64,000 nt of DNA from Bacillota bacterium (GTDB lineage: Bacteria; Bacillota_I; Bacilli_A; RFN20; CAG-288). The notes beneath the pieces are model-generated. The model did no database searches and was not told where the DNA came from. It was given only the letters and a program-made list of their open reading frames with translations. The translations under genes were made by a program, and so were the position numbers. The stretch's first letter is position 1. Every line of letters begins with the position of its first letter. The stretch covers positions 45,132-109,131 of the forward strand of contig DAISOU010000002.1 of assembly GCA_036830315.1 (NCBI GenBank). Direction: 5' to 3'. This document shows, in pieces, positions 8,557 through 49,869 of the stretch.

Positions 8557-9285
8557 ATGGTAATAAGAATAGCCATGGTCGAAGACTGCTTAGAAGATGC
8601 CACTCGTCTTAAGGAATATCTTATGAGATATTCTAAGGAAGAGCAGGTTGATTTTAATATCGACTATTTTGACAGTGCTGAAAAATTCCTTTCTCAATAC
8701 CAAGCTGTCTATGCTTTGGTGTTCTTAGATATCAAGATGTCGGGAATGAACGGAATGGATTGTGCCGTCGAGCTGAGAAAAAAAGACAAAGTAGTCTCCA
8801 TCATCTTCATAACAAGTCTTATTCAGTTTGCCCAGAAAGGCTATGAGGTAAACGCCCTGAGCTTTTTGATCAAACCCATCAACTACGCTGATATCTATAT
8901 GAAGCTGAAGAAAGCTCTTGATCTGGTCTTCATCAAAGAAGAGCACCATATCATGATCAGTGTTCATTCCGGTGTCTGCATGATCTCAACCGATGAACTG
9001 ATGTATGTCGAAATTCAGGGACACCGTCTGAAATATCATCTTGTCGGTGAGACTTTGGAGATGAGCGGAAATCTCTCCAAGGCCGAAAAGGAACTGTCAG
9101 GTTTTGGGTTTCTCCGTTGCAACAGCTGTTATCTTGTCAATCCTAAACACGTCATGTCAGTAAAAGGCATGGATATTCGAGTGGGAAGCGAAATCCTTAA
9201 AATCAGTCGACCTAAAAGAAAAGCCTTTATGACTAAGCTTACAAATTGGCTGGCTGGCGAAAACAACAGAGAAAGAGGAAGATAA
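8557..9285 (+). CDS. LytTR-family response regulator (TCS-1)
   Basis: Receiver domain (IAMVEDC...LVFLDIKMSGMNGMD...IIFITS) followed by a LytTR-type C-terminus (VEIQGHRLKYHL...FLRCNSCYLVNPKHV). RBS GAGGGG lies upstream. Confidence 0.9.
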   Translation: MVIRIAMVEDCLEDATRLKEYLMRYSKEEQVDFNIDYFDSAEKFLSQYQAVYALVFLDIKMSGMNGMDCAVELRKKDKVVSIIFITSLIQFAQKGYEVNALSFLIKPINYADIYMKLKKALDLVFIKEEHHIMISVHSGVCMISTDELMYVEIQGHRLKYHLVGETLEMSGNLSKAEKELSGFGFLRCNSCYLVNPKHVMSVKGMDIRVGSEILKISRPKRKAFMTKLTNWLAGENNRERGR

Positions 9286-9287
9286 CA

Positions 9288-10652
9288 ATGGATTTTCAAA
9301 ATATCTGGTCCGTCTTCCGGGCGTCTATCTTTGAATTTGTCTTAGAGATCTTTGTCTTCTATTTCATCTTTCAGTTGGGAATGAAGAAAAGAAAACTCTT
9401 CTACGTGTATTTCATCAATGCTTTCTTCCTTACCTGTCTTCTAGGTTTTGGACTGACTTTCTTCTATGTCGGATACGGGAATACTATCTGGGGAAGAAGT
9501 ATTGTCTATACCTCGATGTTCTTAGTGTCCTATCTTCTTTTGATACCTTGCTTTGATGAATCCCCCTGGAGTGTCCTCTTCTGTGCAATCGGCGCTTATG
9601 CTGCTCAGAATCTAGCCTATCAGGTATATTTGATCGTCTGGTATATCGGTGAGGCCTTTAATGTGTTTCCTCAGATATTCCAAAGAGAATATGCCAGCTT
9701 TTTCTTCTATCTATATTATTATTCTTTTTTCTCGGTCGAGGTTCTTGCAGTCTACTTCCTCTTTGCCAGGAAGATGCGGGATTATCTGAGTCTTTATTCC
9801 GTCAAGTTCAAAGTTCTGGTCTTCTCCGTCTTCGTGATACTGATAACTGTTGTCTTAACTACTATTCAGGATATTTATATTTCCGTGGAACCGACAGTCC
9901 TGAGGATTTCCGGAAATCTTTTGGCAGCTACCTGCTGTGTCTGTATTCTCCTTCTTCTCTCAGGCTTTTTGGAGAAGAAGGAGTCTCAGGCGGAAATCGA
10001 ATTGCTGCAGAGGATGATGAAGGAAAAACAGCAGCAGCTAGAGATATCCAAGGAAAGCATCGATCTGGTGAATATCAAATGCCACGATATGCGTCATCGT
10101 CTTCAGGCAATGAAGGAAGAAGGCAAAGAAGTCAATGCCGAAAACTTCAAAGACTTGGAAGAGTCTGTTTCTCTTTATGATACTAATGCACAGACTGGCA
10201 ATAAGGCTCTTGATGTCATCATTACCGAAAAACAGCTTTTCTGCCGGAAACACGGTATTCGTCTGTCTTTTATTGCGGATGGAAAAGAGCTGTCCTTCAT
10301 GGAAGACAATGATGTCTATTGTCTGTTTGGCAACATTCTCGAGAATGCCTTGGAGGCGGTTGGAAAAGTCACTGACACGGAAAAGAAGACTATCTGTCTG
10401 ACTATCAAGAAGACAGGTCAGTTATTGAGTATTCATGAGGAAAACTACTTTGAGGGAAAAATCCGATTCGAAAAGGGAATGCCTCTGACTTCCAAAAAAG
10501 ATGATCGCTATCATGGCTTTGGAATGAAGAGCATCGAATATATCGTCAGGAAATACAAAGGTGAAGTCACCTCCAATGCTGAAAAATCTATTTTTCACCT
10601 CAATATCATGTTCAGCGTACCAGATACAAGGCCTAAAAAGGCTTCTTTGTAA
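9288..10652 (+). CDS. AgrC/HPK10-like GHKL sensor histidine kinase (TCS-1)
   Basis: ATG at 9288 follows GAGGAAG, 2 nt after the RR stop. About 6 N-terminal TM helices. H-box IKCHDMRHRLQAM, N-box LFGNILENALEA, G-box YHGFGMKSIEYIVRKYKG. Confidence 0.9.
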   Translation: MDFQNIWSVFRASIFEFVLEIFVFYFIFQLGMKKRKLFYVYFINAFFLTCLLGFGLTFFYVGYGNTIWGRSIVYTSMFLVSYLLLIPCFDESPWSVLFCAIGAYAAQNLAYQVYLIVWYIGEAFNVFPQIFQREYASFFFYLYYYSFFSVEVLAVYFLFARKMRDYLSLYSVKFKVLVFSVFVILITVVLTTIQDIYISVEPTVLRISGNLLAATCCVCILLLLSGFLEKKESQAEIELLQRMMKEKQQQLEISKESIDLVNIKCHDMRHRLQAMKEEGKEVNAENFKDLEESVSLYDTNAQTGNKALDVIITEKQLFCRKHGIRLSFIADGKELSFMEDNDVYCLFGNILENALEAVGKVTDTEKKTICLTIKKTGQLLSIHEENYFEGKIRFEKGMPLTSKKDDRYHGFGMKSIEYIVRKYKGEVTSNAEKSIFHLNIMFSVPDTRPKKASL

Positions 10653-10718: not shown

Positions 10719-10746
10719 AAACCGCGTTGAAAGCGGTTTTTTATTT
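10719..10746 (+). terminator. Intrinsic terminator or attenuator after TCS-1
   Basis: AAACCGC-gttgaaa-GCGGTTTTTTATTT. It lies only ~40 nt before the RBS of the next gene, so some read-through is likely. Confidence 0.75.
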
Positions 10747-10799
10747 GTTTAAACTGAGTCTGCGTTTAGGAAAGCGCTATTTCAAGGGAGGACTTGGAA

Positions 10800-12578
10800 A
10801 TGAATATCATGAAGAAAAGAAGAACTGTCACCTTATTCTCAGCCTTAGCTGTTTTAGTAAGCGTCGGTGCTTTAGCCTCTTGCAGTAACGGCGGCTCTAG
10901 TGAAATCAAAACTGAAGATATGATAAAACTGGAAGCTGAAAAAGCCGTTGTCAGGGGAACACCTTCTTCCGGAAGTGCCTTCCTTGTCGAATCGGATGAA
11001 GACAGCAAAGTCCAGGCCACTGGCTGGGAATATATCGGTAATTTAGCCGTTATCGATAATTCCATCACTTGGGTCTTTGAAGGATCCAAAGAAGGAAAAC
11101 AGGATTTTATTCTGACAGTCTCCAATACTCAGATGGCCTCGGTCAAGTTAGAAGACCAGGGCAATATCAAAGTCAATGATGTCGATGCCACTTTCAGTTT
11201 AAGCCTTGATAGCGGAGACGGCAAAGGCGAGAACTGGCAGAAGGTCACAGTCACAGCCTCCAATATCAAGTCGGGATATAACTTCATCGTCTTATCCGTC
11301 AAAGCCAACACTTTGTCTGATGATGGCTCAATCTGTGCTCCTAATGTCGATAACATCTATATCCCCAAAGACGGGAACTCTACTCATACCCATGATTTCA
11401 CCGATACTTCAAGCGGAGACTGTCTGACAGCCGGTTATACCCATTCCGAATGCGATGACTGCGGAATCAGCTATGATCACGATTATACCAATCCTGTCGG
11501 CCATCAAGTCGGCGAAGACGGAATCTGTTCTGTCTGCGGCAAGAAAGTCTATAGCTATGAAGCTGAAAATGCCGATATCAGTGGAGTTGTATCCAGTTAT
11601 GGTTCTGTAATCGATATCAATTCTGCCGCCTCTAACGGCTATTCTGTGGGAAGCTTTTCCAAAGTCGGGAATACCCTGGCTTTTAAAATCGACTCCACTA
11701 TAAGCGATGAAGTGACTTTTGTCTTCCGTCTTTCATCGACTAGATGGGCGGATGGCTCGACTGGCGGAAACGTCAATATCGCTTCTACTCAGGTGACAGA
11801 TGTTCTGACAATCTCCTTGAATGAAACTGAGATAACTCCTAGTTCGATTCTTCCGGGAAGTAATGGAGAATACTATTTCAACTGGGCCAATGCCATCACT
11901 AAAGCCACTGTCAATGAAGGCGAAAACTCTTTGAAGATCGTCTCTAAGACTGATGCCGGCGCTCCCAATATCGACGTTGTTCAGATGACTGCCGACAATG
12001 CTGTTCTCTCCTGGACTGATATCGATAATGTCGGTGACAGCTCTGCTTCACAAAACGAACATAACAAAGTCACTGCCACGATGCCCGATTATGTTCACGC
12101 CAATCAGTTTGTCTATGAGAGCGAAGATGCTGTCATCACCGGCGGAAGCGTTAAAGACAATGAGACCGATACCTCAAACAATAAGTTTGTCGGTGATCTC
12201 TTCAATGGAAATTCCATCACCTATAATTTCACTTCCTCAGAGGCCGGTGTCGGAAACCTCATCTTCAAGATGGCATCAACCTGCGCTATCTGGAATAACG
12301 GCGTTGCCCAGAATATGGTCGACTTCAATCTGGCTGAGAATACTGCTATGACTTTAAATGGAACCGCAGTCGACTTGTCTTCTTTGCTTTTGAAAGGATA
12401 TCCTAGCGAGAACTTCTTCAACTGGAATTACCTTTCTCTGACTGATGCCGCACTTTTAAAGGGTGAGAACATAGTCGTCTTTGAAATTCCCTACTCCTGG
12501 GGCGGACCTAATATGGATAATCTGATTGTCGACAGTGATCTGACAATCGAAAAGACTGTCATCACTCCTCAGGCTTAA
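10800..12578 (+). CDS. Lipoprotein with three CBM6/35-like modules and a Cys-rich insert
   Basis: ATG at 10800 is 7 nt after AAGGGAGGA. Lipobox GALASC. Three module starts carry the [YL]E[AS]E signature of CBM6/35 (KLEAEKAVVRG, YSYEAENADISG, FVYESEDAVITGG). A CxxC-type insert spans 11385-11543. Confidence 0.8.
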   Translation: MNIMKKRRTVTLFSALAVLVSVGALASCSNGGSSEIKTEDMIKLEAEKAVVRGTPSSGSAFLVESDEDSKVQATGWEYIGNLAVIDNSITWVFEGSKEGKQDFILTVSNTQMASVKLEDQGNIKVNDVDATFSLSLDSGDGKGENWQKVTVTASNIKSGYNFIVLSVKANTLSDDGSICAPNVDNIYIPKDGNSTHTHDFTDTSSGDCLTAGYTHSECDDCGISYDHDYTNPVGHQVGEDGICSVCGKKVYSYEAENADISGVVSSYGSVIDINSAASNGYSVGSFSKVGNTLAFKIDSTISDEVTFVFRLSSTRWADGSTGGNVNIASTQVTDVLTISLNETEITPSSILPGSNGEYYFNWANAITKATVNEGENSLKIVSKTDAGAPNIDVVQMTADNAVLSWTDIDNVGDSSASQNEHNKVTATMPDYVHANQFVYESEDAVITGGSVKDNETDTSNNKFVGDLFNGNSITYNFTSSEAGVGNLIFKMASTCAIWNNGVAQNMVDFNLAENTAMTLNGTAVDLSSLLLKGYPSENFFNWNYLSLTDAALLKGENIVVFEIPYSWGGPNMDNLIVDSDLTIEKTVITPQA

Positions 12579-12663: not shown

Positions 12664-15429
12664 ATGAAAGCAAAACGTTTTCTGATTATGAATGTCGCTA
12701 TCATTTCCTCATTGTCTGTTTTACTTATCACCGCCAATATCGTCATTTCCGTCTTTCATAATGCCATCAATCTCGCTCTTTCAGGATCTGGTGCCAATTA
12801 TCAGTCTGCAACAGCCCAGGAAGCTTATGATAAGGGCGCAGAAGTCGGTCGTCAGATTGAAGAAGAAGGATTGGTTCTCCTTAAAAACAACAATGGTGTT
12901 CTTCCTCTTGAAAACACGGAGAAAATAAATTTGTTCGGCTGGGCCTCATCCTCAGTCTTTTATGGAGGAAGCGGCAGCGGAACCAGTAATTCTTTAAGCG
13001 CTTTAGGCTTGCCGGAAGCGCTGAAGAAAAAAGGAATCGAGTGTAATCCTTCTTTAGTTTCTAAGTATGAGGAGTTCCAAAGCTAGAGAAAAGCCTCGGG
13101 TGTCGGAAGCGCCGATTGGTCGTTGCCAGAACCGGCTATTGATACTTATAGCGATGCTGATTTTTCTTCTTATCTGGCTTATTCTGACACAGCGATGATG
13201 GTTATCTCCCGTAACGGCGGAGAAGGAAACGATTTGCCTAAAGGCTATCTCACAATCACTGAAAATGAAAGAAACCTATTAGATAAGATCAAAACGAAAT
13301 TTGAAAAAGTAATCGTCTTAATCAATACTGGCAATGCCATGGAATTAGGATTCTTAGACGATGAGAAAATCGATGCCGCTGTCAATATCGGTTTCCCCGG
13401 TTCTCAGGGACTTGAAGGTGTAGCCAGTGTCATCAAAGGCGAAGTGTCGCCTTCAGGAAGACTGGTCGACACATACGCCTATGATTCTACTTCTGCCCCT
13501 TCTTATTTTGAATCGGCGGTCGATAACAATACTCTGGGCGTATTTCAATATTCCAATAAGGCCGGATACTATTACGTCGATTATAACGAAGGCATTTATG
13601 TCGGATATCGTTATTATGAAACCAGGTATTCACCCGATTCTCCTTCTCATGATGAAGGAATCGATTATTCCTCAGTCGTTCAGTATCCTTTTGGCTATGG
13701 ATTAAGCTATACGACTTTCGATTATGAGTTTGTCAGTTCCTCTCCGGAAAGAAATTCGGATGTTACTGCTGATAGCCAACTAAGTGTAAAGGTGAAAGTC
13801 ACTAACACCGGCTCTGTCAAAGGAAAAGACGTTGTCTCTCTCTACTATACAGCTCCTTATATTGCAGGACAGATTGAGAAATCATACGTCACCTTAGGAT
13901 CATTTGAAAAGACTAAGGAATTAGCTCCTAAAGAAAGCCAGATCTTGGAATTCACTATCAGCATGGAAGATATGGCATCATATGATTCTAATGATATGAA
14001 TAGAGATGGTTTCTGCGGATATACCTTAGACAAAGGAACATATTCTCTTCGTCTGTCAAAGAATTCTCATGAAAGACTGAAGGACGACAGCGCCTTCACT
14101 GTCGACTACAATCTGAAAACCAGTGCCAACATCATCAGAAGATCAAATGATAAGACTGATGTCACTAATCAGTATACTGGTGAAACTGCTGAAAACGGCA
14201 TAAGCGTCGATGGAAGTCAGGAGAAGACAAAAGTCGAATATGTATCCCGTTTGGACTTTGAAGGTACTCTTCCTCAAAAGAAGAGCCGTGAGATGACTTC
14301 AGAAGTCAATGCCTTGATCAATTATAAGACCGTTGATGACAAGGACGATGAGATGCCGAGAGTCAGCGAGGATTCAGGACTTGTCCTCAAAGACATGGAA
14401 GGTTTAGATTACTCGGACCCCAAATGGGAGACTCTCTTAAATCAGCTCAGTGTCAAGGAGATGAAGGAACTAATCGGAAAAGCCGGTTATCTGACAGCGA
14501 GGATCCCTTCTATCGAAAAAAGCAAGACCATCGATTTAGATGGTCCGGCCGGAATCAATGAATCCAATACCACTATCGGAACTGATACGAGTCACGCTGT
14601 CGCTTATCCCTGCGAGACTGTCATTGCTCAGACTTTCAATAAAGATGTCGCCTACTCGATGGGTTATGCGGTTGGAAAAGAAGCCGATGCCTATGGTATC
14701 AATGGCTGGTATGCACCAGCCATGAATCTTCATCGTTCTCCTTATTCTGGAAGAAACTTCGAATACTATAGCGAGGACCCCTATCTTTCCGGAGTTATGG
14801 GCTCTAATGTCTCTAAAGGCGCTAAGGATATGGGACTCTATACTTACGTCAAGCACTTTGCCGTCAATGATCAGGAAACCAAAAGAGATGCTAACGGCAT
14901 CTATACCTGGCTGACTGAGCAGTCCATGCGCGAATTATATCTCAAGCCCTTTGAGATGACCGTGAAAGACGGTTCAGCCACGGCCTTTATGTCTTCTTTC
15001 AATCGAATCGGAGCCACTTGGGCTGGAGGAAGCCATTCTCTTCTGACTACTATCCTCAGAAACGAATGGGGATATCAGGGCATGGTTATCACTGATTGGT
15101 ATTATCCAGGCAACTATATGAATATCGACCAGGGACTGAGAGCCGGAAATGACTGCTGGCTGAACGGCTTGGGTCTGGATGTCACTTTCGATACTTCTTC
15201 CTCTACTTCGGTCAAGAAGATGAGAGAATCCTCTCATCATATCCTCTATACGATTGCCAATGCGACAATCGTCTCCAAGGAAGCCGACAATACCTGGGTG
15301 ATATACGTCTATGTCATCGATGCCATCTTAGTAGTTGAACTGGGATTTTATCTCACTATGACTATCTTTGGATATAAGAAGAAACTGAAGAGCGAATCAA
15401 ATAAGAATGATTTGAAACAGGGTGAATAG
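12664..15429 (+). pseudogene. GH3 exo-glycosidase (GH3-1) interrupted by a single in-frame TAG at 13084-13086
   Basis: ORFs 12664..13086 and 13123..15429 share one frame, separated only by the TAG. The downstream ORF starts at a TTG with no RBS. Together they reproduce the full paralog architecture: N-terminal TM, EEGLVLLKNNNGVLPL, then TAG, then ISRNGGEGNDLP, VQYPFGYGLSYTTF, VTNTGSVKGKDVVSLYY, WYAPAMNLHRSPYSGRNFEYYSEDPYLSG, KHFAVNDQETKR, GYQGMVITDW and a C-terminal TM. Confidence 0.8.
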
Positions 15430-15431
15430 AA

Positions 15432-18400
15432 ATGAAAAACAATAAAAAGAAAATGAAGGCAAAGACTTTTGCCTTCATCATGTCGGGTGCTGTCTTGGTG
15501 ACTGTCAGTTTTGGAATTGTCTTTACTCTTCTGACAACCACTTATTTTGATCCGGTCCTAAGAGACTTCTTCGGTGAACAGGCCAGTGCGACTGGATCAC
15601 TTTCCGGAAGCGATGATGTCATCTATGACAAGATGGATTTTTCTACCGTCAAGGAACTTGAGGATTATGAGACTTCTTTAGTCCGTGAAATCGGCGGAGA
15701 GGGATATGTCCTTTTAAAGAATGACACTGCTAATGGCAAAGGTCTTCCTATTGCCACTGATAAGAACAATAAAACCAAACTCAGTCTTTTCTCTCATTCC
15801 TCGGTTGATATCGTTGCCGGAGGTACGGGGTCTGGTGTCGGAACTTCAAATTTGACTTTAAAAGACGCACTTGAAAACAACAATTATGATGTGAATGACA
15901 CCCTGTGGAATTTCTATGCCACCGGAAACGGCAAAGGCTATAAGAGAGGTTCAGGTTCTATCAATTACGGTCAGGGTGAAGATTGGTCGATCAATGAATG
16001 CCCCTTAAGCAAACTTCAGGGTGAATCAGGTTTACTGGCCTCAACTGATAATTCCACAGCCGTCTATGTTCTTTCAAGAACTGGCGGAGAAGGACGTGAC
16101 TTAGGAAGATCGATGACTAATTTCACTTCTGCTGCCGCTGACAAGAACAAGAGCTATCTAGAACCGGATTCAGTCGAATTAGGTGTCATCTCTTATTTGA
16201 ATGACAACTTTGACAATGTCATCCTTCTTGTGAACACCAACAACGTGATGGAATTAGGCTGGGTAGAAGACTACGAAAACATCAATTCTGTGCTTTGGGT
16301 ACCGGGAGGAGGCGGGGAGGCCGCTAACTCTATTGCTGATGTAATAGTAGGAAATGTCACTCCTTCTGGACATCTGACTGATACGATGGCCTATGACGCT
16401 TTCTCCTCTCCGGCCATGAAGAACATGGGCGATTTCCAGTATACGGTCTCCGGAAACTCAACTGGCTATTACGGCGTCTCTTATGACGAGGGCATCTATG
16501 TCGGATATAAGTATTATGAGACTCGCTATTATGATTCCGTCATGAATCAGGGCAATGTCGGAGACTATGACTATTCGACTTCGGTCCAGTATCCTTTTGG
16601 ATATGGCTTAAGCTATACCACCTTTGACTGGACTAACTATAAGTCATCATCGATGGATAAAGATGGCAACATCGAAATCAGCGTCGATATCAAGAATACC
16701 GGCTCTGTCAAAGGTAAAGAAGTTGTCCAAGTATATCTAGAGTCTCCTTATACTGATTACGACAGAGAAAACCATATTGAGAAGTCAGCTGTGTCCTTAG
16801 TCGGATATGCCAAGACTTCTTTATTGGAACCTGGGTCCAGTGAGACTGTCAAAGTCACAGTAAGCAGAGATGATTTTGTCTCTTATGATGATACTAAGGC
16901 CAAGACCTATATTCTAGACCAGGGAGACTACAATCTGACAGCTGCCTCTGATGCTCATAAAGCAACCAACAATATTCTTGCCAAACACGATAAGGTCATG
17001 GGCGGAAAGATGGATGAAAACGGAAACAAAGACTTTGTCTCTACCTGGACCAATTCAAATTTAGATACTTCAACCTATTCCAAGTCTGAAAAAGGAACTG
17101 AAGTGACTAATAGGTTCGATGGCGATAACTTAGAAGGCTCTAATTACATCAATCGCGACAAATACCTGAGCAGAAACGACTGGACTAATACTTTCCCGGT
17201 GACTCACGGCAATCAAAACCGCAAAGTAAAGAGCACCTATGGCGAAGTAAACGGATATTCCTACCAGGAAGAAATCACTTCTGACTTGAAGAAGAAACTT
17301 GATCTTAAAGGAACATCAGAAGCAGCCAAGACTCCTCTTTCTGACGAAGATGCCGCCAGTAAAGCGGGTGAGATGGGGAAAGACGGAGACTTAGAACTCA
17401 TCGATTATCGCGGAAAAGCCTATGACGACAAGGACTATGAAGAACTGGCCAGTCAGGTTACGACGAAAGAAGCCGGCAAAATCATCAATCTGGCAGGTTA
17501 TACCAGTGAAAAGGCCAGTTCGATTCAAAAGCCTAAGGCAATTGATCTTGACGGACCGATGGGCCTTAACAATATGGCCACCCATGAACCTTATTCAATC
17601 TCCTATCCTTCGGAGGTGACTATCGCCGCTTCCTTCAATGACACACTTTCGGAAAAGCATGGAAACGCCGTAGCCAATGACGGACTTAAGACTACTGTCA
17701 AAGCGTCAGGCTGGTATGCTCCCGCCATGAATATTCACCGGACACCTTTTGCGGGAAGAAACTTCGAATACTATTCAGAAGATAGCTATATGTCGGGAAA
17801 GATGGCAATAGCTGCTACCACCGGTGCCGCAAAGAAAGGAATGTATTCCTTCGTCAAGCACTTTGCCCTCAATGATCAAGAAGATCATCGAAGCGATAAC
17901 GGCTTAGTGACCTGGTGCAACGAGCAGGCTATGCGTGAAATCTATCTTAAACCATTCCAGATGGTCGCTGAGGCAAAGCCGGTAACTATGAGCTACTACG
18001 AAAAAGACAATGACGGAAACTTAAGAGCCAAGACGACTGAGATGCCTCTGTTAAGAGCAGTTATGTCCTCCTTCAATCGTATCGGATACACCTGGGCTGG
18101 AGGAGATTACCGTCTTATTACCGAAGTTTTGAGAAACGAGTGGGGATTCAACGGTTTTGTTCTTACTGATTACAGTCTCGGAGCAACTAGCTATATGCAT
18201 ACGGAACAGATGCTCAGAGCCGGCGGAGACGGACAGTTGACTCAGTATGGAAACTCCTATGCGATCACCAACGATACTCAGGTCTATTATTCGAAGCAGG
18301 CTTTGAAACATATCCTCTTCACTGTCGTCAATTCCAATGCTATGAACGGCTTCAAGAACGGGACTGTTGTTGCCGATACACCTTTCGCCAATTATTACTA

Positions 18401-40417: not shown

Positions 40418-40586
40418 TTTGTTTTGATTACTTATTTTACTATATTCTGTGAGCAAAAAGAACACCTGATGATAATTGGCTGAGAGTCTAAAAACAGATT
40501 TAGGTGTTTTTCCGTATTAGTTTTGTGTTATTCTTTTTAAAAAGAATTGGTCCTGTGTTTTTTTCTTTCTGTTTTGAGGTATCTAA

Positions 40587-42680: not shown

Positions 42681-42715
42681 CGAAAAAGCCTGGTTTTAAA
42701 AAATCAGGCCTTTTT
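42681..42715 (+). terminator. Weak terminator-like hairpin after TCS-3
   Basis: AAAAAGCCTG-gttttaaaaaat-CAGGCCTTTTT: a short GC stem with a T-run. Confidence 0.4.
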
Positions 42716-42846
42716 AATGTATTCTTTCAGATGTAAGCCCTTGCATATACCTTGTGCAAGTCTAAGAAAGGATAAAAGGAGGCTTTTTATTATCGGATTC
42801 TTATGTCATACGAGCTGAGATGATGCTAAAAGAAAGGAAAAAGCAA

Positions 42847-45800
42847 ATGAAAAAAAGCTTTATCGCATTAGGGGCGTTAGCGTTATTCGGATGTTCCTTC
42901 GCTTCGGGAAAGATGAACTCTTCTCTGCAGATTGATAACTATAACCGGGCACTTCAGACAAATCGGGCATATACTTCTGATTATGATGCCAAAGAGGATG
43001 CTCTGAAGAAAGGTCTTGAAATCAACGAGCAGATTGCTGAAGAAGGCATGGTTTTACTTAAAAATGAGAATAATGCCCTTCCTTTAAGTGCCAAGAAGGG
43101 TACTCTTGCCAGTCATGTGACTGTCTTTGGCTATGCTTCATTTAATCCTACTGGAGGCGGATCATCTTCAGGAGATGCTTCCGGCGGTATAGCTAAGCTT
43201 ACTGCCACAATCTATTCCAGCTTAGCTGATGCCAACATCGTCGTTAATCCGACTGTCAAGAAAGCCTACACGGGCTGGTTAGCTGAGACTGTCACTGGAA
43301 CTAATTCCTATGGTCAGACAGTTCAGGTTCCTAAATATGGCTCTGATTTGGCTCTTGACGGAATTATAGAAGAAAACAAGACGACTTTAGAAGATTCTTA
43401 TGGTTCCTACTCTGATGCTGCTATCCTCGTCTTCACCAATGGCACAGGAACTGAAAGAGCTCATCGTATGGCTCTTGATCAGGAACAGTATGACTTGGTT
43501 GATTATGCAGCCAGCAAGTTTGGCAAGGTCATCGTCCTTATCAACAATTCGACTCCGATTGAAATCAAGAAACTCAAAGACAACGTCAATGTCGATTCTA
43601 TCTTGGTTATCGGAGAACCCGGTGACAACGGCTTTGAGGCTGTCGGCAAGATCTTGAACGGCACCGTCAATCCTAGCGGCCACTTGTCTGATACTTATTC
43701 GGCTGATTTCACCAAGGATCCCAGTTTCAACAATATCAACCTGACCGGTGCCGCGGACGGAAACCCGCAGTATACCGTCAACGGCGAAAAGAAGAATTCC
43801 TATTTCCGCGATTATGACGAAGGCATCTATACCGGCTATCGTTATTATGAGACTGCCTATGCTGAAAAACTCGCCGGAAACTATGCTGATTTTGAATATG
43901 ACAGTGCAGTCGCCTATCCTTTCGGACATGGCTTAAGCTACACTGACTTCAAATGGTCTCTAGTCTCAACCAGCGGAACTCTTGAGAAAAACGGAAATCT
44001 TTCCTTTAATGTCAAGGTTACCAATGACGGAGAGACAGCTGGCAAAGATGTCGTCGAACTCTTCTATCATGCTCCCTATATCACAGGCGGAATCGAAAAG
44101 TCTGATGTGGTCTTAGGAGACTATGCTAAGACTGACTTGCTAAAACCTGGCGAGAGTCAAATCGTCAACTTGGAAGTCGATGTCAATGACTTGGCTTCTT
44201 ATGACTATAAGACCGATAAGACTTATGTTCTTGATGCCGGAGACTATGTCTTCTCCCTGAGAACTGATGCTCATACTGTCAAGAAAAACGCTGACAGCGA
44301 AGATCTGAAGGTGACTAAGAATCTGGCTGCCAAGGCTTTAGTCAATACTTCAGTCACCGGTTATACTGTCACCAATCAGTTCCAGGATGTCACTGACGGT
44401 GGAAATGAACACGGAGTCGGTACTTTCTCCAGAGCGAATTTCACGACTACCTGGCCGGCTGCCCCGACTGCCGAAGAACACGTTCTGACAGCTGAGCAGT
44501 TTAAGGCTCTGGAGACTGTCGTCACGAAGGAATATGATACTGGCTCCAAATGGGAAGAGACAACTATGCCTGCTTATTCTGATCCTGATACCCGTCCGGC
44601 TACTGCAGCTGTAAAGCTTGCTGACCTGACTGGTGCTGATTACGATGATCCTAAGTGGGACACTCTTCTCGATGAGCTTTCCTTAGATGAAATGAACAAT
44701 CTTATCACCAATGCCGGCTTCAGAACCGAATCCATCGATTATATCGGCAAACCTTATTCTCTTGACACTGACGGACCTAAGGGCTGGACTGGTACTGGAA
44801 CTTCTGGAACCAGATTCAACGCTTTCGCTGCTGAACCTGTCATTGCTGCTACCTGGAACAAGGAATTAGCTTATGATATGGGCAAGATTGTCGGTGATCA
44901 GGGTATCTGGGGCTGTCTTGACAGAACCGATACGGCTGCTGGCGGTAAAATCTATGGTTACACTGGCTGGTATGCTCCTGGCATGAACCTGCACAGAAGT
45001 CCTTTCGATGGACGTTTTAACGAATACTTCTCCGAAGACCCTGTCTTGACTGGAAACACTGTCGCTAATCAGTCTTTGGGTATCAAATCTAAAGGCGGTT
45101 ATGTCTTCCTCAAGCACTTCGCCGTCCATGAAGACGGTGGCGGTGTCGGAATCTCGATGTCGGGAGGTTCCTTCAAGATCACCGGTTATCGCGGTGGTGC
45201 TGAAGCTACTTCCGGAACCTGCTACTGGCTTACTGAACAGGCGATGCGTGAACTCTATCTGAAGCCTTTCCAGATTGCCGTCGAAGATGGTCAGGCCGGT
45301 GCTGTCATGTCTTCCTTCTCAAGACTTGGAACTACTTGGGCCGGTGCTTCTTATTCCTTACTTACCGAATGTCTGAGAAACGAGTGGGGATTCAAGGGCT
45401 ATGTTGTCACCGATATCGATATCTACGGCTTCCTCAACGTCGACCAGATGATCAGAGCCGGCGGCGACTGCCTCCTCACTTCTTCCATCACCTCCAATAA
45501 GAGAAGATGCGGAACGACAGATTACACTTCTTTGGATAACCCCACTGCCACTCAGATTGCCGCTATGAGAAGAGCTACCAAGTCTATTCTCTACACTGTC
45601 GGAAATTCTCACGCCATGGATGTTCCGATGGGTGCCAAGGTAAATTACGCAGCTGAAAATTCGATTGTCAGCGGCGAAGTCGGTGCGGCTCTTGATATCG
45701 ATTGCTCTGATACCTCTCTCAATACCAAATACAACTATTCTCCGATAACATACACTGCTGAAACTCTTCCTGAAGGTCTTACTCTTGATGCTGCAACCGG

Positions 45801-46173
45801 ACATATCACCGGAACTGTGGCAACTGCCGGTCTCTATTCCATTGATGTCGTAGCTGCTGCTGATGGCTATGAATCAGCGACTAAACAGATTCTTGTTTCA
45901 GTCAATGATGGCTCCAAGACAATCAGTGAACAGATTACCGATTTAGAGGCTCAGATTGAGGCTTTGAAGACAAAGTTAGATACTACCAATGCTGATAAGA
46001 CGGCTTTAGAGACCAAGATCACTGAACTTCAGGCTAAGATCGCTGCTCTGGAAGCAAAACCTGAAACTAAGATCGACAATACCGGATTGATTACCGGAAT
46101 TGTCATCGTCGGTGTCTTAGCAGCTGCTGCTGTCGCTTTAGGACTACTTAACCTTTTGAAGAAAAAGAATTAA
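42847..46173 (+). CDS. GH3 exo-glycosidase (GH3-6): lipobox N-terminus, C-terminal Ig-like domain, coiled coil and TM anchor
   Basis: ATG at 42847 follows AAAGGA. Lipobox ALFGC. Motifs: EEGMVLLKNENNALPL, VAYPFGHGLSYTDF, VTNDGETAGKDVVELFY, WYAPGMNLHRSPFDGRFNEYFSEDPVLTG, KHFAVHEDGGG, GFKGYVVTDI. The tail reads YTAETLPEGLTLDAATGHITGTVATAGLYS, then heptad-like LEAQIEALKTKLD...ITELQAKIAALEAK, then a TM helix and KKKN. Confidence 0.9.
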   Translation: MKKSFIALGALALFGCSFASGKMNSSLQIDNYNRALQTNRAYTSDYDAKEDALKKGLEINEQIAEEGMVLLKNENNALPLSAKKGTLASHVTVFGYASFNPTGGGSSSGDASGGIAKLTATIYSSLADANIVVNPTVKKAYTGWLAETVTGTNSYGQTVQVPKYGSDLALDGIIEENKTTLEDSYGSYSDAAILVFTNGTGTERAHRMALDQEQYDLVDYAASKFGKVIVLINNSTPIEIKKLKDNVNVDSILVIGEPGDNGFEAVGKILNGTVNPSGHLSDTYSADFTKDPSFNNINLTGAADGNPQYTVNGEKKNSYFRDYDEGIYTGYRYYETAYAEKLAGNYADFEYDSAVAYPFGHGLSYTDFKWSLVSTSGTLEKNGNLSFNVKVTNDGETAGKDVVELFYHAPYITGGIEKSDVVLGDYAKTDLLKPGESQIVNLEVDVNDLASYDYKTDKTYVLDAGDYVFSLRTDAHTVKKNADSEDLKVTKNLAAKALVNTSVTGYTVTNQFQDVTDGGNEHGVGTFSRANFTTTWPAAPTAEEHVLTAEQFKALETVVTKEYDTGSKWEETTMPAYSDPDTRPATAAVKLADLTGADYDDPKWDTLLDELSLDEMNNLITNAGFRTESIDYIGKPYSLDTDGPKGWTGTGTSGTRFNAFAAEPVIAATWNKELAYDMGKIVGDQGIWGCLDRTDTAAGGKIYGYTGWYAPGMNLHRSPFDGRFNEYFSEDPVLTGNTVANQSLGIKSKGGYVFLKHFAVHEDGGGVGISMSGGSFKITGYRGGAEATSGTCYWLTEQAMRELYLKPFQIAVEDGQAGAVMSSFSRLGTTWAGASYSLLTECLRNEWGFKGYVVTDIDIYGFLNVDQMIRAGGDCLLTSSITSNKRRCGTTDYTSLDNPTATQIAAMRRATKSILYTVGNSHAMDVPMGAKVNYAAENSIVSGEVGAALDIDCSDTSLNTKYNYSPITYTAETLPEGLTLDAATGHITGTVATAGLYSIDVVAAADGYESATKQILVSVNDGSKTISEQITDLEAQIEALKTKLDTTNADKTALETKITELQAKIAALEAKPETKIDNTGLITGIVIVGVLAAAAVALGLLNLLKKKN

Positions 46174-46192: not shown

Positions 46193-46864
46193 ATGCTTAA
46201 AAAAAGAATTGGATTTGCTCTTCTCGGTGTTTTGATAGTTTTGACAGGATGCGGGGAAAAATCTTCCTCCTCAGTTTCTGACAAACCCGCATCCTCCGTC
46301 TCTTCATCAGTGACTTCTTCTTCCAAAGAAGAAGCTAGTTCATCTAGTGTTGAAAAACCTGAATATGAAAGATTCGAGGCTGAATACATCAATGTCACTG
46401 ATCCTATCTTGATGGGTTCAGGAATCTCAGGGTCGGCAGCTGGTGTCAATCTTGTTTTGCAGGATGCCAATAGCAGCAATGGCTGGTTTATCGGCTACTC
46501 TCATAGAACGGGATTTGCCGTCACTTACAAAATCACTGCTGATAAAGCGGCTACGGCCAAGATGAAACTGGGCTTTGGCAATGAACTTGGTGTAGGCATG
46601 ACGATGAATACTGCTTCTCTGGCTTTTTCACTGAATGGAACGGCTGTTACCTACAATCAATTCGTGATTCAGGTTGATGGCTGGCACTCCTACGACTTCT
46701 CTTCTACTTTGAACCTAGTCAAAGGTGAGAACACCTTAGTAATGACAGTCGGTACCAATGAATACTGCAACGGCGGACCCGGTGGACCTCTCTTCGATTA
46801 TATCGATTTGAAAACTGAGGCTGCCTTAAGCTGGAATCCGGTAACTTCAAACATCGAAGAATAA
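46193..46864 (+). CDS. Small lipoprotein with one CBM6/35-like module
   Basis: Lipobox VLTGC and a Ser-rich linker. The module starts YERFEAEYINVTD. Confidence 0.8.
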   Translation: MLKKRIGFALLGVLIVLTGCGEKSSSSVSDKPASSVSSSVTSSSKEEASSSSVEKPEYERFEAEYINVTDPILMGSGISGSAAGVNLVLQDANSSNGWFIGYSHRTGFAVTYKITADKAATAKMKLGFGNELGVGMTMNTASLAFSLNGTAVTYNQFVIQVDGWHSYDFSSTLNLVKGENTLVMTVGTNEYCNGGPGGPLFDYIDLKTEAALSWNPVTSNIEE

Positions 46865-46910: not shown

Positions 46911-46926
46911 AAATCAAGGAGAAAAC

Positions 46927-49869
46927 ATGAATCCATTTAAAAAGATGTGGCAGACAAAGAGGACGCGGATCTTCATGATCGTCTGTCCGCTTGTCCTGAT
47001 ACTCTGTCTGGTTATTTCTCTTGTCATCGCCAATGTCCCGATAATCTCGGGAACTTTGGATATTGCCTTTGGAGGCAAGAGAGCAATAACTGGCGAAAAC
47101 AAGCAGCATTACGCTTCTGATTATGAGACGAAGGCTGAAGCCAAAGAAGCAGCCGAAAAGCTTGGAGTTGATATCGTCTCCGAAGGCATCACCTTGCTGA
47201 AAAACGAAAACAACGCCTTACCTTTGAAAAAAGATGATAAAGTCACTGTCTTTGGAAAGAACAGTGTCAATCTAGTTTATGGAGGCAGCGGTTCCAGCGC
47301 TTCTAAGTCTGAATCCAATGAAGGTGTCTATTCTTCTCTGGAAGCTTCCGGTTTCACCTATAATCCTACGATGAAGGCTTTCTATGACGATAAGGGAAAG
47401 AGCGGAAGCGGTCGCTCTACTTCTCCTAACATGGGTGATATCATCGCCGGTTTTGCAACGGGTGAGACTCCTATTTCCTCTTATACGGAAACACAGAGGC
47501 AGTCTTATTCTCAATATCGAGATGCCGCGATTGTCGTCATTTCGAGAATCGGCGGAGAGGGTTATGATCTTCCTCGTTCTATGAAGACTGATTATTCTGC
47601 TGATGCGACTAAGGTTGAGGGTGCCAGAAACAAAGATGACCATTATCTGCAGTTAGACCAAAATGAAACTGACCTTCTCAAAGAGGCCAATGACAACTTT
47701 GATAAAGTCATCGTCGTTCTCAATACGGCTCAGATCATTGAGACTGGGTTTTTGGATGACACCGAAAACTATGCCTATTATCCCAATATCAAAGCCTGTC
47801 TTTGGATGGGCTTGCCAGCTACTAAAGGCGCTTTGGCTTTAGGAAAGGTCTTGAGCGGAGAAGTAAATCCCAGCGGTCATACCGTTGACACTTATGCCAG
47901 AAATTTCAAAAACGATCCTTCCTATAAGAACTTTGGAAACAACAACACTGACGGCGGAAACGAATATCTGGTTTCCGGAAACAAAGCTGGTTATTACTAT
48001 GTCGACTATGAAGAGGGAATCTATGTCGGCTATCGTTATTATGAGACTCGCTATCAGCAGGAAAAAACTAAAGATCCTGATACCACCTGGTATAAGGACA
48101 ATGTAGTTTATCCTTTCGGATATGGACTTAGCTATACGACTTTTGATTGGGAAATAAAGTGGCCTGACATCAGTGACATCACTTCTCCGGATCAGGAAAT
48201 AAAAGTCGAAGTCAAAGTCACAAATACCGGTTCTGTTGCTGGTAAGGATGTCGTTTCTCTTTATTACACTCCTTTCTATACAGAAGGCGGAATCGAAAAG
48301 AGCTATGTCAATTTGGCCGCTTTTGAGAAGACTTCTCTTTTAGAGCCGTCTAGTAGTGAGACTTTAACTCTTTCTCTTCTTGCCTCTGATATGAAATCTT
48401 ATGATTATGATGATTCCAATAAAAATGAGTTCTATGGGTATGAATTGGAAAAGGGACGTTATGATCTTCACGTCGCCTCCGATGCTCACACCTATAAAGA
48501 AAGTCATTCGTTCAACGTTACTGAAAACCATCAAATAGACAAAGACTCTAAGACAAAGAACAAAGTTGAGAACCAGTTTGACGATGTGTCAGAGGGTATT
48601 TCCTCTGTCATGTCGAGAAAGAGCTTTGAGACTACTTATCCGACAACACCCTTGGAGGCTGACCGAACTAAAGACACCGCCTTTATTTCTTCTTTGTCCT
48701 ATAAAAAAGATGATTCGGGAAAACCCTGGGAAAGCACTACTATGCCGACTGTCGCATCAGCTGAAGTCTCCAAGGAAAACATAACTGTCACCTTAAAGGA
48801 CTTGGTCGGAAAAGAATATGATGATGCTCTCTGGGATACGCTTCTGAGTCAGCTTACCTTGGATCAGATGTCAAAATTGATCGGAACTGGTGCTTATGGC
48901 ACTGTCTCTATTGAGAATATCTCAAAGCCGATGACGACTGAACCTGACGGACCTTCAGGCTTTACTTCCTTTATGGCCCTTTCAGATGATGCTGTTGTCT
49001 ATGGCACTGCTTTCTATCCGGCTGAATCAGTCCTTGGTTCTACCTGGAATAAAAAACTGGCTGCTTCGATGGGGAAAAGTATCGGAAACGAAGGACTTAT
49101 CGGCAATGAAAAAGGAGACAAACTCCCATATTCAGGCTGGTATGCACCCGCTTGCAACATTCACAGAAGTCCTTTCGGAGGCAGAAACTGGGAGTATTAT
49201 TCCGAAGATCCTTATCTCTCAGGAATCATGGGAACAGAAGTCGTCAAAGCCTGTAAGGAAAAAGGCGTCTACTGCTTCGTCAAGCATTTTGCCGCCAATG
49301 ATCAGGAGACTAACCGCGACAGTGAAGGATGCTTAGTCTGGATGGATGAACAGACTATGAGAGAAATCTATCTCAAACCCTTTGAGATGATAGTCAAAGA
49401 AGGAGAGACGACAGCGATGATGTCCTCATTCAATCGATTAGGAAAAACCTGGGCGGGCGGAAGTTACGCTCTTCTGACTAGTGTCTTAAGGAAAGAATGG
49501 GGATTCAAAGGCGAAGTTGTCACTGATTACAACCTCTTAAGATATATGAATGTCAATCAGATGATAAGAGCAGGTGGAGACTTAGTTCTCAATCAGGGCA
49601 ATAAGGCACCTACTGTCAAAGATGCCGATGCCACTCAGGCAACGGCTATCTATAATTCCACTCATAATATTCTCTATACCATCGCCAATTCCAATGCCAT
49701 GAATGCAGAAATATTGGGATATCTGCTTCCAAAGTGGCAGGTGGTGATGTTTGCAGTCGACTATTCTCTTTTAGGTCTTATGGTGATCTGGGGAGTGGCA
49801 GTCACTGTTTCGGTCTTCTATAAGAAGAAACAAAAACCCGATTACGAATCAGCAAAAAAAGAAAATTAA
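46927..49869 (+). CDS. GH3 exo-glycosidase (GH3-7), N- and C-terminal TM anchors
   Basis: RBS AAGGAGAA. Motifs: SEGITLLKNENNALPL, ISRIGGEGYDLP, VVYPFGYGLSYTTF, VTNTGSVAGKDVVSLYY, WYAPACNIHRSPFGGRNWEYYSEDPYLSG, KHFAANDQETNR, GFKGEVVTDY. Confidence 0.9.
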   Translation: MNPFKKMWQTKRTRIFMIVCPLVLILCLVISLVIANVPIISGTLDIAFGGKRAITGENKQHYASDYETKAEAKEAAEKLGVDIVSEGITLLKNENNALPLKKDDKVTVFGKNSVNLVYGGSGSSASKSESNEGVYSSLEASGFTYNPTMKAFYDDKGKSGSGRSTSPNMGDIIAGFATGETPISSYTETQRQSYSQYRDAAIVVISRIGGEGYDLPRSMKTDYSADATKVEGARNKDDHYLQLDQNETDLLKEANDNFDKVIVVLNTAQIIETGFLDDTENYAYYPNIKACLWMGLPATKGALALGKVLSGEVNPSGHTVDTYARNFKNDPSYKNFGNNNTDGGNEYLVSGNKAGYYYVDYEEGIYVGYRYYETRYQQEKTKDPDTTWYKDNVVYPFGYGLSYTTFDWEIKWPDISDITSPDQEIKVEVKVTNTGSVAGKDVVSLYYTPFYTEGGIEKSYVNLAAFEKTSLLEPSSSETLTLSLLASDMKSYDYDDSNKNEFYGYELEKGRYDLHVASDAHTYKESHSFNVTENHQIDKDSKTKNKVENQFDDVSEGISSVMSRKSFETTYPTTPLEADRTKDTAFISSLSYKKDDSGKPWESTTMPTVASAEVSKENITVTLKDLVGKEYDDALWDTLLSQLTLDQMSKLIGTGAYGTVSIENISKPMTTEPDGPSGFTSFMALSDDAVVYGTAFYPAESVLGSTWNKKLAASMGKSIGNEGLIGNEKGDKLPYSGWYAPACNIHRSPFGGRNWEYYSEDPYLSGIMGTEVVKACKEKGVYCFVKHFAANDQETNRDSEGCLVWMDEQTMREIYLKPFEMIVKEGETTAMMSSFNRLGKTWAGGSYALLTSVLRKEWGFKGEVVTDYNLLRYMNVNQMIRAGGDLVLNQGNKAPTVKDADATQATAIYNSTHNILYTIANSNAMNAEILGYLLPKWQVVMFAVDYSLLGLMVIWGVAVTVSVFYKKKQKPDYESAKKEN

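Follow-up and report, generated by a model that had tools for sequence, protein, structure and literature searches.

Three LytTR two-component systems clustered with circularly permuted, predicted membrane-anchored GH3 enzymes in a Bacillota bacterium

The island and its closest described relatives

In Butyrivibrio proteoclasticus, LytTR-type response regulators each lie near the gene for a secreted glycoside hydrolase family 3 (GH3) enzyme with a C-terminal transmembrane (TM) helix, and Kelly et al. proposed in 2010 that these two-component systems (TCSs) sense carbohydrate and control expression of the enzymes (PMC2914790). The supplement on strain B316 lists LytTR regulators under the polysaccharide utilization loci (PULs) PUL7 and PUL22 (PMC2914790). 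We found no functional study of this LytTR-GH3 cassette in the literature. Here, we describe a 41-kb island in a Bacillota bacterium of the CAG-288 lineage that carries three such TCSs together with seven GH3 genes. The island spans positions 8557-49869 of a 64,000-nt stretch of assembly GCA_036830315.1 (contig DAISOU010000002.1, 45,132-109,131, forward strand), hereafter the window, to which all coordinates refer unless a related locus is named. Domains were assigned from the open reading frame (ORF) listing and Pfam scans, and database proteins at least 90% identical to window proteins carry the label "Bacilli bacterium". The contig occurs in a metagenome assembly and in a UBA metagenome-assembled genome.

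The island contains seven GH3 genes, six proteins with a lipobox, one TM-anchored protein bearing four modules that resemble carbohydrate-binding module family 35 (CBM35), and three TCSs pairing a LytTR regulator with a HATPase_c_5 kinase (Table 1). These genes form three modules (A, B, and C), each headed by a response regulator (RR_A, RR_B, RR_C) and a histidine kinase (HK_A, HK_B, HK_C), with a central block between modules A and B. This layout, running from TCS through CBM proteins to GH3s of permuted domain order, had been proposed in an initial annotation made from the sequence and is borne out here, as are the positions of the three TCSs, where Pfam identifies receiver, LytTR, and HATPase_c_5 domains. 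The same annotation counted eight paralogous GH3 genes, whereas there are seven, which is also the number in its own list. The two large lipoproteins upstream of the island, considered as candidates for an eighth, give no GH3 signal at E ≤ 1. Pfam detected neither a transporter nor a catabolic enzyme among the island ORFs, in line with the initial annotation, and no LacI or AraC regulator lies within the island.

We regard it as somewhat probable that three glycan-responsive LytTR/HPK10 cassettes make up the island as an array and drive surface CBM35 and immunoglobulin-like (Ig) lipoproteins and doubly anchored, exo-acting GH3s, with uptake encoded elsewhere. The cassette itself is conserved in gut Bacillota, where it is widespread; although remarked on in 2010, it is uncharacterized.

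The likeness to B. proteoclasticus B316 consists of a LytTR regulator and kinase beside an exported GH3 beta-glucosidase with a C-terminal TM helix, an arrangement found both in the window and in its relatives; for B316 it is taken from the published description. In B316, the pairs belong to larger loci that also encode GPH, ABC, or PTS transporters and regulators of the LacI or DeoR type, whereas the island packs three systems and seven GH3s into 41 kb, has separate CBM35 lipoproteins, and contains no transporter. Searching a plasmid collection with HK_A gave no Butyrivibrio examples, the matches being agr-type or unrelated kinases, and in a GH3_5 search of plasmids Butyrivibrio was not among the ten most frequent genera.

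The permuted GH3 subfamily to which the window enzymes belong by domain order was already known from GlyA1, an enzyme from a rumen metagenome (PDB: 5K6L-O; PMC5104943). In GlyA1 and the Paenibacillus barengoltzii enzyme (PDB: 5WUG/5WVP), as in the window GH3s, an (alpha/beta)6 sandwich precedes an FnIII domain and an (alpha/beta)8 barrel, with the catalytic Asp kept. Both the subfamily and the window enzymes are associated with gut and rumen Firmicutes. The window GH3s differ from the GlyA1 type in their flanking helices, one per end, and in their dedicated TCS; the main text of the GlyA1 paper mentions neither "transmembrane" nor "signal peptide" (PMC5104943).

As clustered CAZyme genes with an adjacent regulator, the island also resembles the Gram-positive PULs (gpPULs) of Roseburia and Eubacterium rectale. 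In the loci tabulated by Sheridan et al. (2016), each has a transport system, mostly of the ABC type, and most of the regulators belong to the LacI or AraC families; one of these loci, Roseburia Ros-7, has a LytTR regulator and kinase (PMC5320581). Because no transporter lies in 8557-49869, the island falls outside the gpPUL definition as given in that source. It is not a Bacteroidota PUL either, as no window ORF matches a TonB-dependent receptor (SusC) or SusD. The earlier statement that the island fits no known pattern therefore holds for these two classes, but not for the cassette, which was noted in 2010 and recurs in gut Bacillota.

The TCSs share the architecture of AgrCA, ComDE, and VirSR, namely a polytopic sensor with HATPase_c_5, a receiver-LytTR regulator, and direct-repeat targets with a 21-bp period. 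In contrast to Agr-type loci, there is no AgrB, AgrD, or peptide export near the cassette, and the presumed targets are glycosidase and CBM genes. A precedent for a non-peptide signal reaching a LytTR regulator is provided by Escherichia coli BtsSR/YpdAB, in which the membrane domain of a LytS-type kinase senses a small carbon compound and the regulator induces nutrient acquisition. Those kinases, however, are built from 5TM-Lyt, GAF, and His_kinase domains rather than HATPase_c_5, and their targets are transporters, not surface enzymes. In the RsgI/SigI system of Clostridium thermocellum, a CBM-bearing membrane-anchored protein acts on a transcription factor that governs surface functions, whereas the window has no sigma/anti-sigma pair. 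The direct-repeat promoter layout is also common to LytTR regulatory systems that have a membrane inhibitor (PMC6193735); their regulators lack the receiver domain and kinase, both of which are present in the window systems.

Enzymes, binding proteins and sensor kinases

By Pfam coordinates, Glyco_hydro_3_C comes before Glyco_hydro_3 in all seven large ORFs, usually with an Fn3-like domain between the two, which is the circularly permuted order of the GlyA1-type subfamily; the earlier GH3 assignment of the large ORFs is thus upheld. The seven are 32-43% identical in pairwise comparison and, judged by their sequences, are old paralogues. GH3_5 matches beta-glucosidases in two separate pieces (TnBgl3B, PDB: 2x40, E 9e-82) and is colinear with both structurally characterized permuted enzymes, GlyA1 (5k6l) and that of P. 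barengoltzii (5wug). An AlphaFold2 (AF2) model of GH3_5 made from the six intact paralogues (predicted template modeling score 0.71) points the same way: in Foldseek comparisons, about 920 columns of the model align only to 5wvp/5wug and 5k6l-o, against about 470 columns for classical GH3s, with sequence identity to the permuted structures at only ~26%.

The nucleophile Asp, within the motif (V/I)(V/I/L)TD(Y/W/I), is kept in all seven enzymes. A Glu that aligns with the reference GEG, taken as the acid/base residue by alignment to TnBgl3B, is found in all but GH3_6, as GEG in four enzymes, GES in GH3_3, and GEN in GH3_4. The best matches of the GH3 sequence are TnBgl3B, GlyA1, and the P. barengoltzii enzyme, with NagZ reaching only E 3.6e-4. 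NCBIfam equivalog scores lie far below the cut-offs, so that no substrate can be assigned to any of the GH3s.

With the exception of GH3_6, the GH3s begin with a hydrophobic segment behind a basic N-terminus, and in all seven another such segment lies close to the C-terminus, ahead of a tail rich in Lys and Arg. In place of the TM start, GH3_6 carries a lipobox-like LFGC; it also has an extra He_PIG Ig domain and a coiled-coil stalk of ~80 aa ahead of its C-terminal TM helix. Applied to the two flanking helices, the positive-inside rule places the catalytic domains on the outside. There is no LPXTG-like motif within the last 80 residues of any GH3, and thus no sortase-type anchor. These topology calls rely on hydropathy, the lipobox rule, and gene fusions in relatives (described below), and they agree with the outward topology predicted in the initial annotation. 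An acidic residue occurs near the start of the helix in 40 of 60 GH3 anchors, which is suggestive but not universal; as a conserved intramembrane residue it was therefore rejected.

The in-frame TAG reported earlier in one GH3 gene is present in GH3_1. It is the same in three assemblies whose DNA is 100% identical over >16 kb and which therefore probably represent one strain; a sequencing error at this position is unlikely. As the loop in which the TAG sits is variable, no ancestral codon can be assigned to the position; the 781 codons downstream are still open. Together, these features make a recent nonsense mutation the simplest reading, and GH3_1 is probably a recently inactivated gene. Recoding of TAG or pyrrolysine-like read-through was considered and ruled out: TAG ends 12 other window genes, including metK, and as an ordinary stop there it marks the genetic code as standard.

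The CBM35-like modules were located with a profile seeded by a module of the 36528-38390 protein and iterated over the window and related loci. Nine copies lie in the window: four in the seeding protein, three in the lipoprotein encoded after HK_A (aa 47-190, 255-399, and 441-579 of the ORF beginning at 10794), and one each in the 46193-46864 and 26649-28139 lipoproteins. The three- and four-module counts of the initial annotation are matched by both the iterated profile and a PDB profile search. Only the 36528-38390 copy clears the Pfam CBM_6 threshold, and the 10800-12578 lipoprotein gives a weak single-sequence match to CBM35 2vzp. The nine-copy profile reaches CBM35 2w47/2w1w at E 1.4e-11 and also matches 2w87, 3zm8, 2wz8, and 2vzp. 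By sequence profile, the modules are members of CBM35 (CBM6/35 fold), and carbohydrate binding is predicted for them.

Six CBM/Ig lipoproteins had been annotated. Six lipobox proteins are indeed present, but two of them (24390-26633 and 34136-36454) have no Pfam match. These two are paralogous (E 1e-91), and a PDB sequence search with them returned only noise. For the former, no homologue beyond itself was found among 5.8 billion sequences, and its AF2 model is unusable (mean predicted local distance difference test score 38). The 18950-20863 lipoprotein matches PDB sequences in its Ig-like domains only. Because these three large lipoproteins have no assignable function, the earlier description of the island as an "exo-glycosidase-only" battery cannot be maintained. 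When the accessory lipoproteins were compared with neighboring proteins in related cassettes, only weak Ig-domain matches appeared and no orthology was established.

The TCSs have the LytTR/HPK10 architecture, with receiver-LytTR regulators and polytopic HATPase_c_5 kinases. The three kinases are 29-31% identical to one another, and each has 5-7 predicted TM helices; HK_A, with ~5-7, has no sizeable extracellular domain. The H-box HD(L/M)(R/K)H (HDMRH in HK_A) and the N and G boxes are kept in all three kinases, as is the phospho-acceptor Asp in all three regulators. No 5TM-Lyt or His_kinase domain is found in the kinases by Pfam, hence they are not LytS-type, and a PDB sequence search with HK_A gave no match. 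Their TM sensor region diverges very fast: a search of 1.8 billion proteins gave only 56 representatives at E<1e-3. On the minus strand, the stop of HK_B overlaps the start of the TM-anchored four-module gene by 23 nt (38368-38390), and the two genes are probably translationally coupled. The TCS-bearing stretches (8001-10000 and 36001-42000) have a G+C content of 0.365-0.40, compared with 0.42-0.48 for the enzyme genes.

Table 1. Features of the island, its flanks, and related loci (positions refer to the window unless a locus label, L plus number, is given).
Feature	Position	Strand	Basis and remarks
RR_A, receiver + LytTR	8557-9285	+	Pfam Response_reg 4e-13, LytTR 1.7e-13
HK_A, polytopic kinase, 454 aa	9288-10652	+	Pfam HATPase_c_5 4.9e-24; hydropathy
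Terminator-like hairpin after HK_A	10719-10747	+	Direct reading, hairpin scan
Lipoprotein, three CBM35-like modules	10800-12578	+	Lipobox LASC; iterated profile
GH3_1, permuted	12664-15429	+	Pfam; in-frame TAG at 13084-13086
GH3_2, permuted	15432-18524	+	Pfam, hydropathy; N-/C-terminal TM at 13-31 and 991-1009
Lipoprotein, Big_2 Ig-like domains, C-terminal half unassigned	18950-20863	-	Pfam Big_2 2e-23, HL_N-beta; lipobox LTGC
LytTR-type box pair TTGCGAAATA, 11 nt, TTACGAAAAA	20938-20968	-	21-bp period; upstream of 18950-20863 gene
Identical LytTR-type box pair TTGCGAAATA, 11 nt, TTGCGAAATA	21274-21304	+	21-bp period
GH3_3, permuted	21366-24368	+	Pfam, hydropathy; N- and C-terminal TM
Orphan all-beta lipoprotein	24390-26633	+	Lipobox LSGC; paralogue of 34136-36454
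Lipoprotein, Big_3 + one C-terminal CBM35-like module (aa 344-490)	26649-28139	+	Pfam, lipobox, profile
GH3_4, permuted	28149-31076	+	Pfam, hydropathy; N- and C-terminal TM
GH3_5, permuted	31130-34042	+	Pfam, hydropathy, AF2 model; N- and C-terminal TM
Orphan lipoprotein	34136-36454	-	Lipobox; paralogue of 24390-26633
LytTR-type box pair TTATGAAATA, 11 nt, TAACGAAATA	36496-36526	-	21-bp period
TM-anchored protein (N-terminal TM 11-29), four CBM35/CBM6-like modules	36528-38390	-	Pfam CBM_6 1.6e-8, profile
HK_B, polytopic HATPase_c_5 kinase	38368-39711	-	Pfam, hydropathy
RR_B, receiver + LytTR	39713-40420	-	Pfam; probable start MINVAIVEDE
RR_C, receiver + LytTR	40587-41297	+	Pfam
HK_C, polytopic HATPase_c_5 kinase	41294-42604	+	Pfam, hydropathy
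Terminator-like hairpin after HK_C	42688-42717	+	Direct reading, hairpin scan
GH3_6, permuted	42847-46173	+	Pfam; ORF from 42820, probable start 42847
Small lipoprotein, one CBM35-like module (aa 61-208)	46193-46864	+	Lipobox, profile
GH3_7, permuted	46927-49869	+	Pfam, hydropathy; N- and C-terminal TM
Large lipoproteins	762-3638, 3645-6659		Upstream of island; no GH3 signal even at E ≤ 1
MATE efflux gene	6727-8040		Upstream of island; divergent from RR_A
Opp-type ABC importer	54138-60360	-	602-aa SBP_bac_5 lipoprotein, two permeases, two ATPases
BspA-type leucine-rich-repeat lipoprotein, 931 aa	60755-63550	-	
Free-standing 2-TM family, related loci	L021, L029, L031, L032, L035, L043, L052, L058, L059, L063, L067, L075, L078, L083		
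4-5 TM family, related loci	L037:11560-12099, L037:20065-20550, L041:11445-11912, L047:14522-15211, L068:4542-5168, L081:11329-11889		
Fused chains, related loci	L033:7868-13801, L055:5907-11861, L026:3854-9172		~1800-2050 aa

Promoter repeats, recurrence of the cassette and fusions in relatives

An experimentally defined LytTR site consists of two 9-bp repeats, 12 bp apart, just upstream of the -35 element (PMC6193735). Three promoters in the window show this repeat geometry and are predicted LytTR sites. The exact 10-mer TTGCGAAATA occurs three times in the 64-kb window, always within the 502-bp divergent region 20864-21365: the copies at 21274 and 21295 lie ahead of GH3_3, and the copy at 20968-20959, on the opposite strand, lies ahead of the 18950 gene. 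The pair in front of GH3_3 is positioned ~27 nt ahead of a TATATT -10 element and 62 nt ahead of the start codon. The third pair, with boxes of the type seen at 21274, occupies the 73-bp gap upstream of the 34136-36454 gene within module B, where a further copy, ATACGAAATA, follows at 36490-36481. Because both the central block and the final gene of module B have this box type, the central block cannot be called regulator-less, contrary to its earlier depiction as set apart from the TCS modules. Most likely, the central GH3 block and the 18950 and 34136 lipoprotein genes form one regulon, for which TCS-B, with RR_B, is the candidate regulator by position.

The hairpins annotated earlier after HK_A and HK_C were both located as terminator-like stems, although a consensus terminator scan gave the HK_A stem on the minus strand only and without a qualifying T-run. 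Neither module A nor module C has a convincing repeat pair in the interval from the kinase to the gene that follows, and in module A the start codon comes only ~55 nt after the hairpin. Given this short post-hairpin space and the absence of a box pair, partial read-through may express those operons. An Rfam scan of the window gave no match.

We scanned the kinase-to-next-gene intergenic regions of relatives (n = 50) for direct repeats matching at ≥9/10 positions, using shuffles as the expectation. Repeats at 21-bp spacing are present in 10 of the 50 regions, against 0.3 expected, while other spacings give 0-3. The repeat pairs of relatives lie upstream of the next gene, following a terminator-like hairpin in three of nine inspected loci, and -35/-10-like hexamers come after the pair in two of the nine.

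The relatives were obtained by scanning one genome per species with the kinase alignment, which yielded 597 pattern matches and 518 confirmed kinase relatives. Neighborhoods were analyzed in detail for the best 80 loci by similarity to HK_A, with ORFs labeled by window-derived profiles. These loci come mostly from gut metagenome-assembled genomes labeled Clostridia, Christensenellaceae, Oscillospiraceae, Bacilli, or Mollicutes, and one is from cultured Gemmiger gallinarum DSM 109015. The typical order is regulator, kinase, zero to two other genes, and a GH3 of ~1000-2100 aa. A GH3 lies within the next three same-strand genes for 46 of 75 kinases; with 14 loci having too little DNA, this amounts to 46 of 61 informative loci. 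The synteny comparison suggested in the initial annotation thus shows that the TCS with a permuted GH3 recurs, and recurrence in dozens of genomes puts the arrangement far beyond chance. Among the 46 cassette GH3s, 44 are colinear with the permuted-order profile and 32 have hydrophobic segments at both ends; CBM35-like modules occur in 20 of the 46 cassettes, either fused to the GH3 or in a neighbor protein. Three bins labeled Bacteroides uniformis (L060), Prevotellaceae (L069), and Paludibacteraceae (L073) carry the kinase and no adjacent GH3; they probably reflect binning contamination rather than the true distribution.

Pfam annotation of 161 neighboring proteins identified GH16 (seven members), GH2 (three), and Ig-like domains, while no AgrB, sugar-binding protein, or sugar permease family appears in two or more of them. 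Distances among the kinases correlate with those among the GH3s (Mantel r 0.48; reached by 0 of 2000 permutations), and the closest relatives of HK_A (37-40% identity) adjoin orthologues of GH3_2 (47-52% identity). In two loci (L006 and L008), kinase and GH3 are separated by a GH16 gene, which hints at beta-glucan as the substrate of module A. Two controls differ from this pattern: the genuine agr locus of E. eligens includes adjoining AgrB and AgrD, and a permuted GH3 of Niallia taxi, which is followed directly by a second GH3 gene, has no TM helix and no TCS.

Small membrane proteins of two families recur in the related loci. One, of ~100 aa with two predicted TM helices (2-TM) and the motif ...SGIAAQTN.T.SF.E.WWQ..LF..D..., occurs in at least 17 loci, placed between the kinase and the GH3. 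The other, of 160-210 aa with 4-5 TM helices, has six copies in five loci, and four of the copies lie between kinase and GH3. Neither family has a Pfam assignment or an informative name, also among the database homologues of the 2-TM family, and a profile search of the window found no member of either. A separate 71-aa ORF in the convergent gap after GH3_2 (18573-18788, minus strand), whose product contains two hydrophobic segments and ends in KKKKK (MKKLKTLTIISFALSLISLITG...IIYKKKKK), is unmatched by the profiles of both families.

In three genomes, these parts are fused into single chains: an N-terminal 2-TM protein is followed by TM-GH3-TM and a TM-anchored CBM35 array, with basic cytoplasmic linkers between the helices. 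The fusions imply that both GH3 helices are true, uncleaved TM segments, with the GH3 and CBM35 ectodomains outside, and that the 2-TM, GH3, and CBM35 parts work together in the membrane. In particular, as the fused relatives continue past the C-terminal GH3 helix with a cytoplasmic linker and a further helix, this helix is a true TM segment and not a sortase signal. The C-terminal GH3 anchors also resemble the second helix of the 2-TM family, with an aromatic WWQ-type start and often an Asp. The best match has E 4.9e-7 and 16 tails fall below 0.01, compared with 0.032 for the best reversed control; the GH3_7 anchor of the window matches at E 2.8e-4.

Readings of the cassette and its genomic surroundings

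If the island is an array of glycan-responsive cassettes, the polytopic HPK10-type kinase and LytTR regulator of each would switch on the adjacent surface-glycan genes. The phosphorylated regulator would bind a pair of direct repeats, spaced 21 bp, that lies immediately upstream of a weak promoter, and one box type would join the central GH3 block and the 18950 and 34136 genes in a regulon, most likely that of TCS-B. CBM35 and Ig lipoproteins may then capture glycan at the cell surface, where the permuted GH3s, tethered to the membrane's outer face by a helix at each end, would exo-trim it. Released monosaccharides or short oligosaccharides would be imported by transporters encoded elsewhere. 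The signal would most likely be a carbohydrate cue (substrate, oligosaccharide, or released sugar) sensed in the membrane, not a peptide pheromone.

Several observations weigh against this reading. The tie between each regulator and its genes is drawn from sequence and position, the assignment of the boxes to TCS-B from position alone, and modules A and C have no clear repeat pair between kinase and next gene. The kinases contain no recognizable sugar-binding domain, and their TM region diverges very fast, a trait also of the peptide-specific AgrC/ComD sensors; a pheromone gene could lie elsewhere in the genome, by analogy with VirSR. About one-quarter of the related kinases have no GH3 nearby, nor does a fourth paralogue on the same contig. 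Finally, the co-divergence of kinase and GH3 is confounded by species phylogeny, and the 80 loci were picked by their similarity to HK_A.

In one alternative, the kinase, lacking its own ligand-binding domain, would read glycan availability through membrane helix contacts with the GH3 anchors, the TM-CBM35 protein, or, in other genomes, the 2-TM protein, such that it would be informed when substrate is engaged or turned over at the surface. This would suit kinases with short loops only, the probable coupling of HK_B to the overlapping TM-anchored four-module gene, the occurrence of two families of small membrane proteins between kinase and GH3 in more than 20 relatives' loci, the three-part fusions, and the WWQ...D-type motif that GH3 anchors and the 2-TM second helix have in common. 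Yet the kinase-partner interaction is conjecture, the anchor motif is weak, and similarity between TM segments is easily inflated by composition. The window has neither small-protein family, the kinase TM region shows no conserved charged residue that could act as a partner, and the fusions indicate co-function in the membrane, not signaling. We therefore judge such co-sensing to be quite unlikely. The broader proposal that these systems are a distinct, widespread class of glycan-responsive TCS, in which an AgrC-like kinase without a sensor domain is informed by membrane partners and the tethered enzyme or binder serves as receptor, is also unlikely, if a little less so. If true, it would be a Firmicute counterpart to the hybrid TCS and anti-sigma glycan sensors of Bacteroides and to C. 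thermocellum RsgI.

The initial annotation spoke of quorum-sensing-type kinases, and the three kinases could on this account sense peptide pheromones, so that the surface glycosidases would appear only at high cell density. A HATPase_c_5 kinase with a LytTR regulator is indeed the architecture of Agr, Com, Fsr, and VirSR, and the fast-evolving TM sensor is reminiscent of pheromone receptors with diversified specificity. VirSR of Clostridium perfringens, moreover, controls secreted glycosidases while its agrBD genes are unlinked. However, Pfam finds no AgrB among window ORFs of at least 100 aa, a C39-peptidase ABC exporter is missing as well, and none of the small ORFs ahead of the regulators is plausible as a peptide gene, with none credible as AgrD upstream of RR_A. 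A linked AgrB-type protein with an AgrD-type or double-glycine precursor is absent from the window, and no pheromone-processing family recurs beside 75 related kinases, in contrast to the genuine agr locus used as a control. "Quorum-sensing-type" is thus a family label only. Several paralogous systems per genome, each co-diverging with its own GH3 type, fit substrate-specific sensing better than density sensing, and control by pheromone seems to us improbable. Envelope maintenance, in which the GH3s would act on the cell's own wall, capsule, or lipoglycan under LytSR-like control rather than on nutrients, is very unlikely. LytTR regulators are named for autolysis control, GH3 includes NagZ-type enzymes, and the island enzymes are tethered to the cell's own membrane, but their sequences match two-domain GH3s of the beta-glucosidase/xylosidase type and hardly NagZ, their partners are of the CBM35 type, orthologous cassettes contain GH16 and GH2 enzymes, and the kinases are not LytS-type. 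Least probable of all, to the point of being nearly negligible, is that a lineage-specific GH3 expansion lies beside unrelated TCSs by chance. The missing repeat boxes of modules A and C and the presence of one pseudogene candidate would agree with it; against it stand the adjacency in 46 of 61 informative loci under the labels Clostridia, Christensenellaceae, Oscillospiraceae, Gemmiger, or Bacilli, its independent occurrence in the Lachnospiraceae member B. proteoclasticus, the enrichment of 21-bp repeats, and the co-divergence of kinase and GH3.

Glycan sensing in Gram-positive gut bacteria is poorly understood beyond LacI/AraC regulators and a few AraC-type TCSs. The combination of LytTR/HPK10 systems with doubly anchored permuted GH3s has hundreds of relatives, its own promoter architecture, recurrent accessory membrane proteins, and no linked importer. 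If these systems are glycan sensors, they would represent a class of regulatory systems governing surface exo-glycosidases among uncultured Bacilli, Christensenellales, Oscillospirales, and Lachnospirales, with a bearing on public-goods release of monosaccharides in the gut. Since cultured carriers exist (Gemmiger gallinarum and Butyrivibrio proteoclasticus), the question is directly testable.

Upstream of the island, the plus strand at 133-6659 encodes a series of big secreted proteins and lipoproteins without family assignment (949 and 984 aa among them; one with Big_2), which may be a further surface-protein block beside the island. Beyond the left end of the window (L002:1-9934), two weak Peptidase_M6-like proteins precede this series. 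On the downstream side, a metallophosphoesterase gene, metK, a MatE gene, the Opp-type ABC system, and the BspA-type lipoprotein gene follow. The cargo of the Opp-type system could be either peptides or oligosaccharides. Past the right end of the window lie an aldehyde dehydrogenase and then an ABC importer of the PF04392/BPD_transp_2 type. A dedicated sugar importer and a conventional regulator belonging to the same operons just outside the window had been named as a finding that would count against the proposal; ABC importers do occur 4-19 kb away, but housekeeping genes and strand changes intervene, which makes them separate operons. The fourth LytTR and HATPase_c_5 pair is found at the end of the source contig (L088:2-2157, ~7.7-9.9 kb past the window) with no GH3 beside it, and an SLFN-like helicase and the PF04392/BPD_transp_2 importer lie between the window and this pair.

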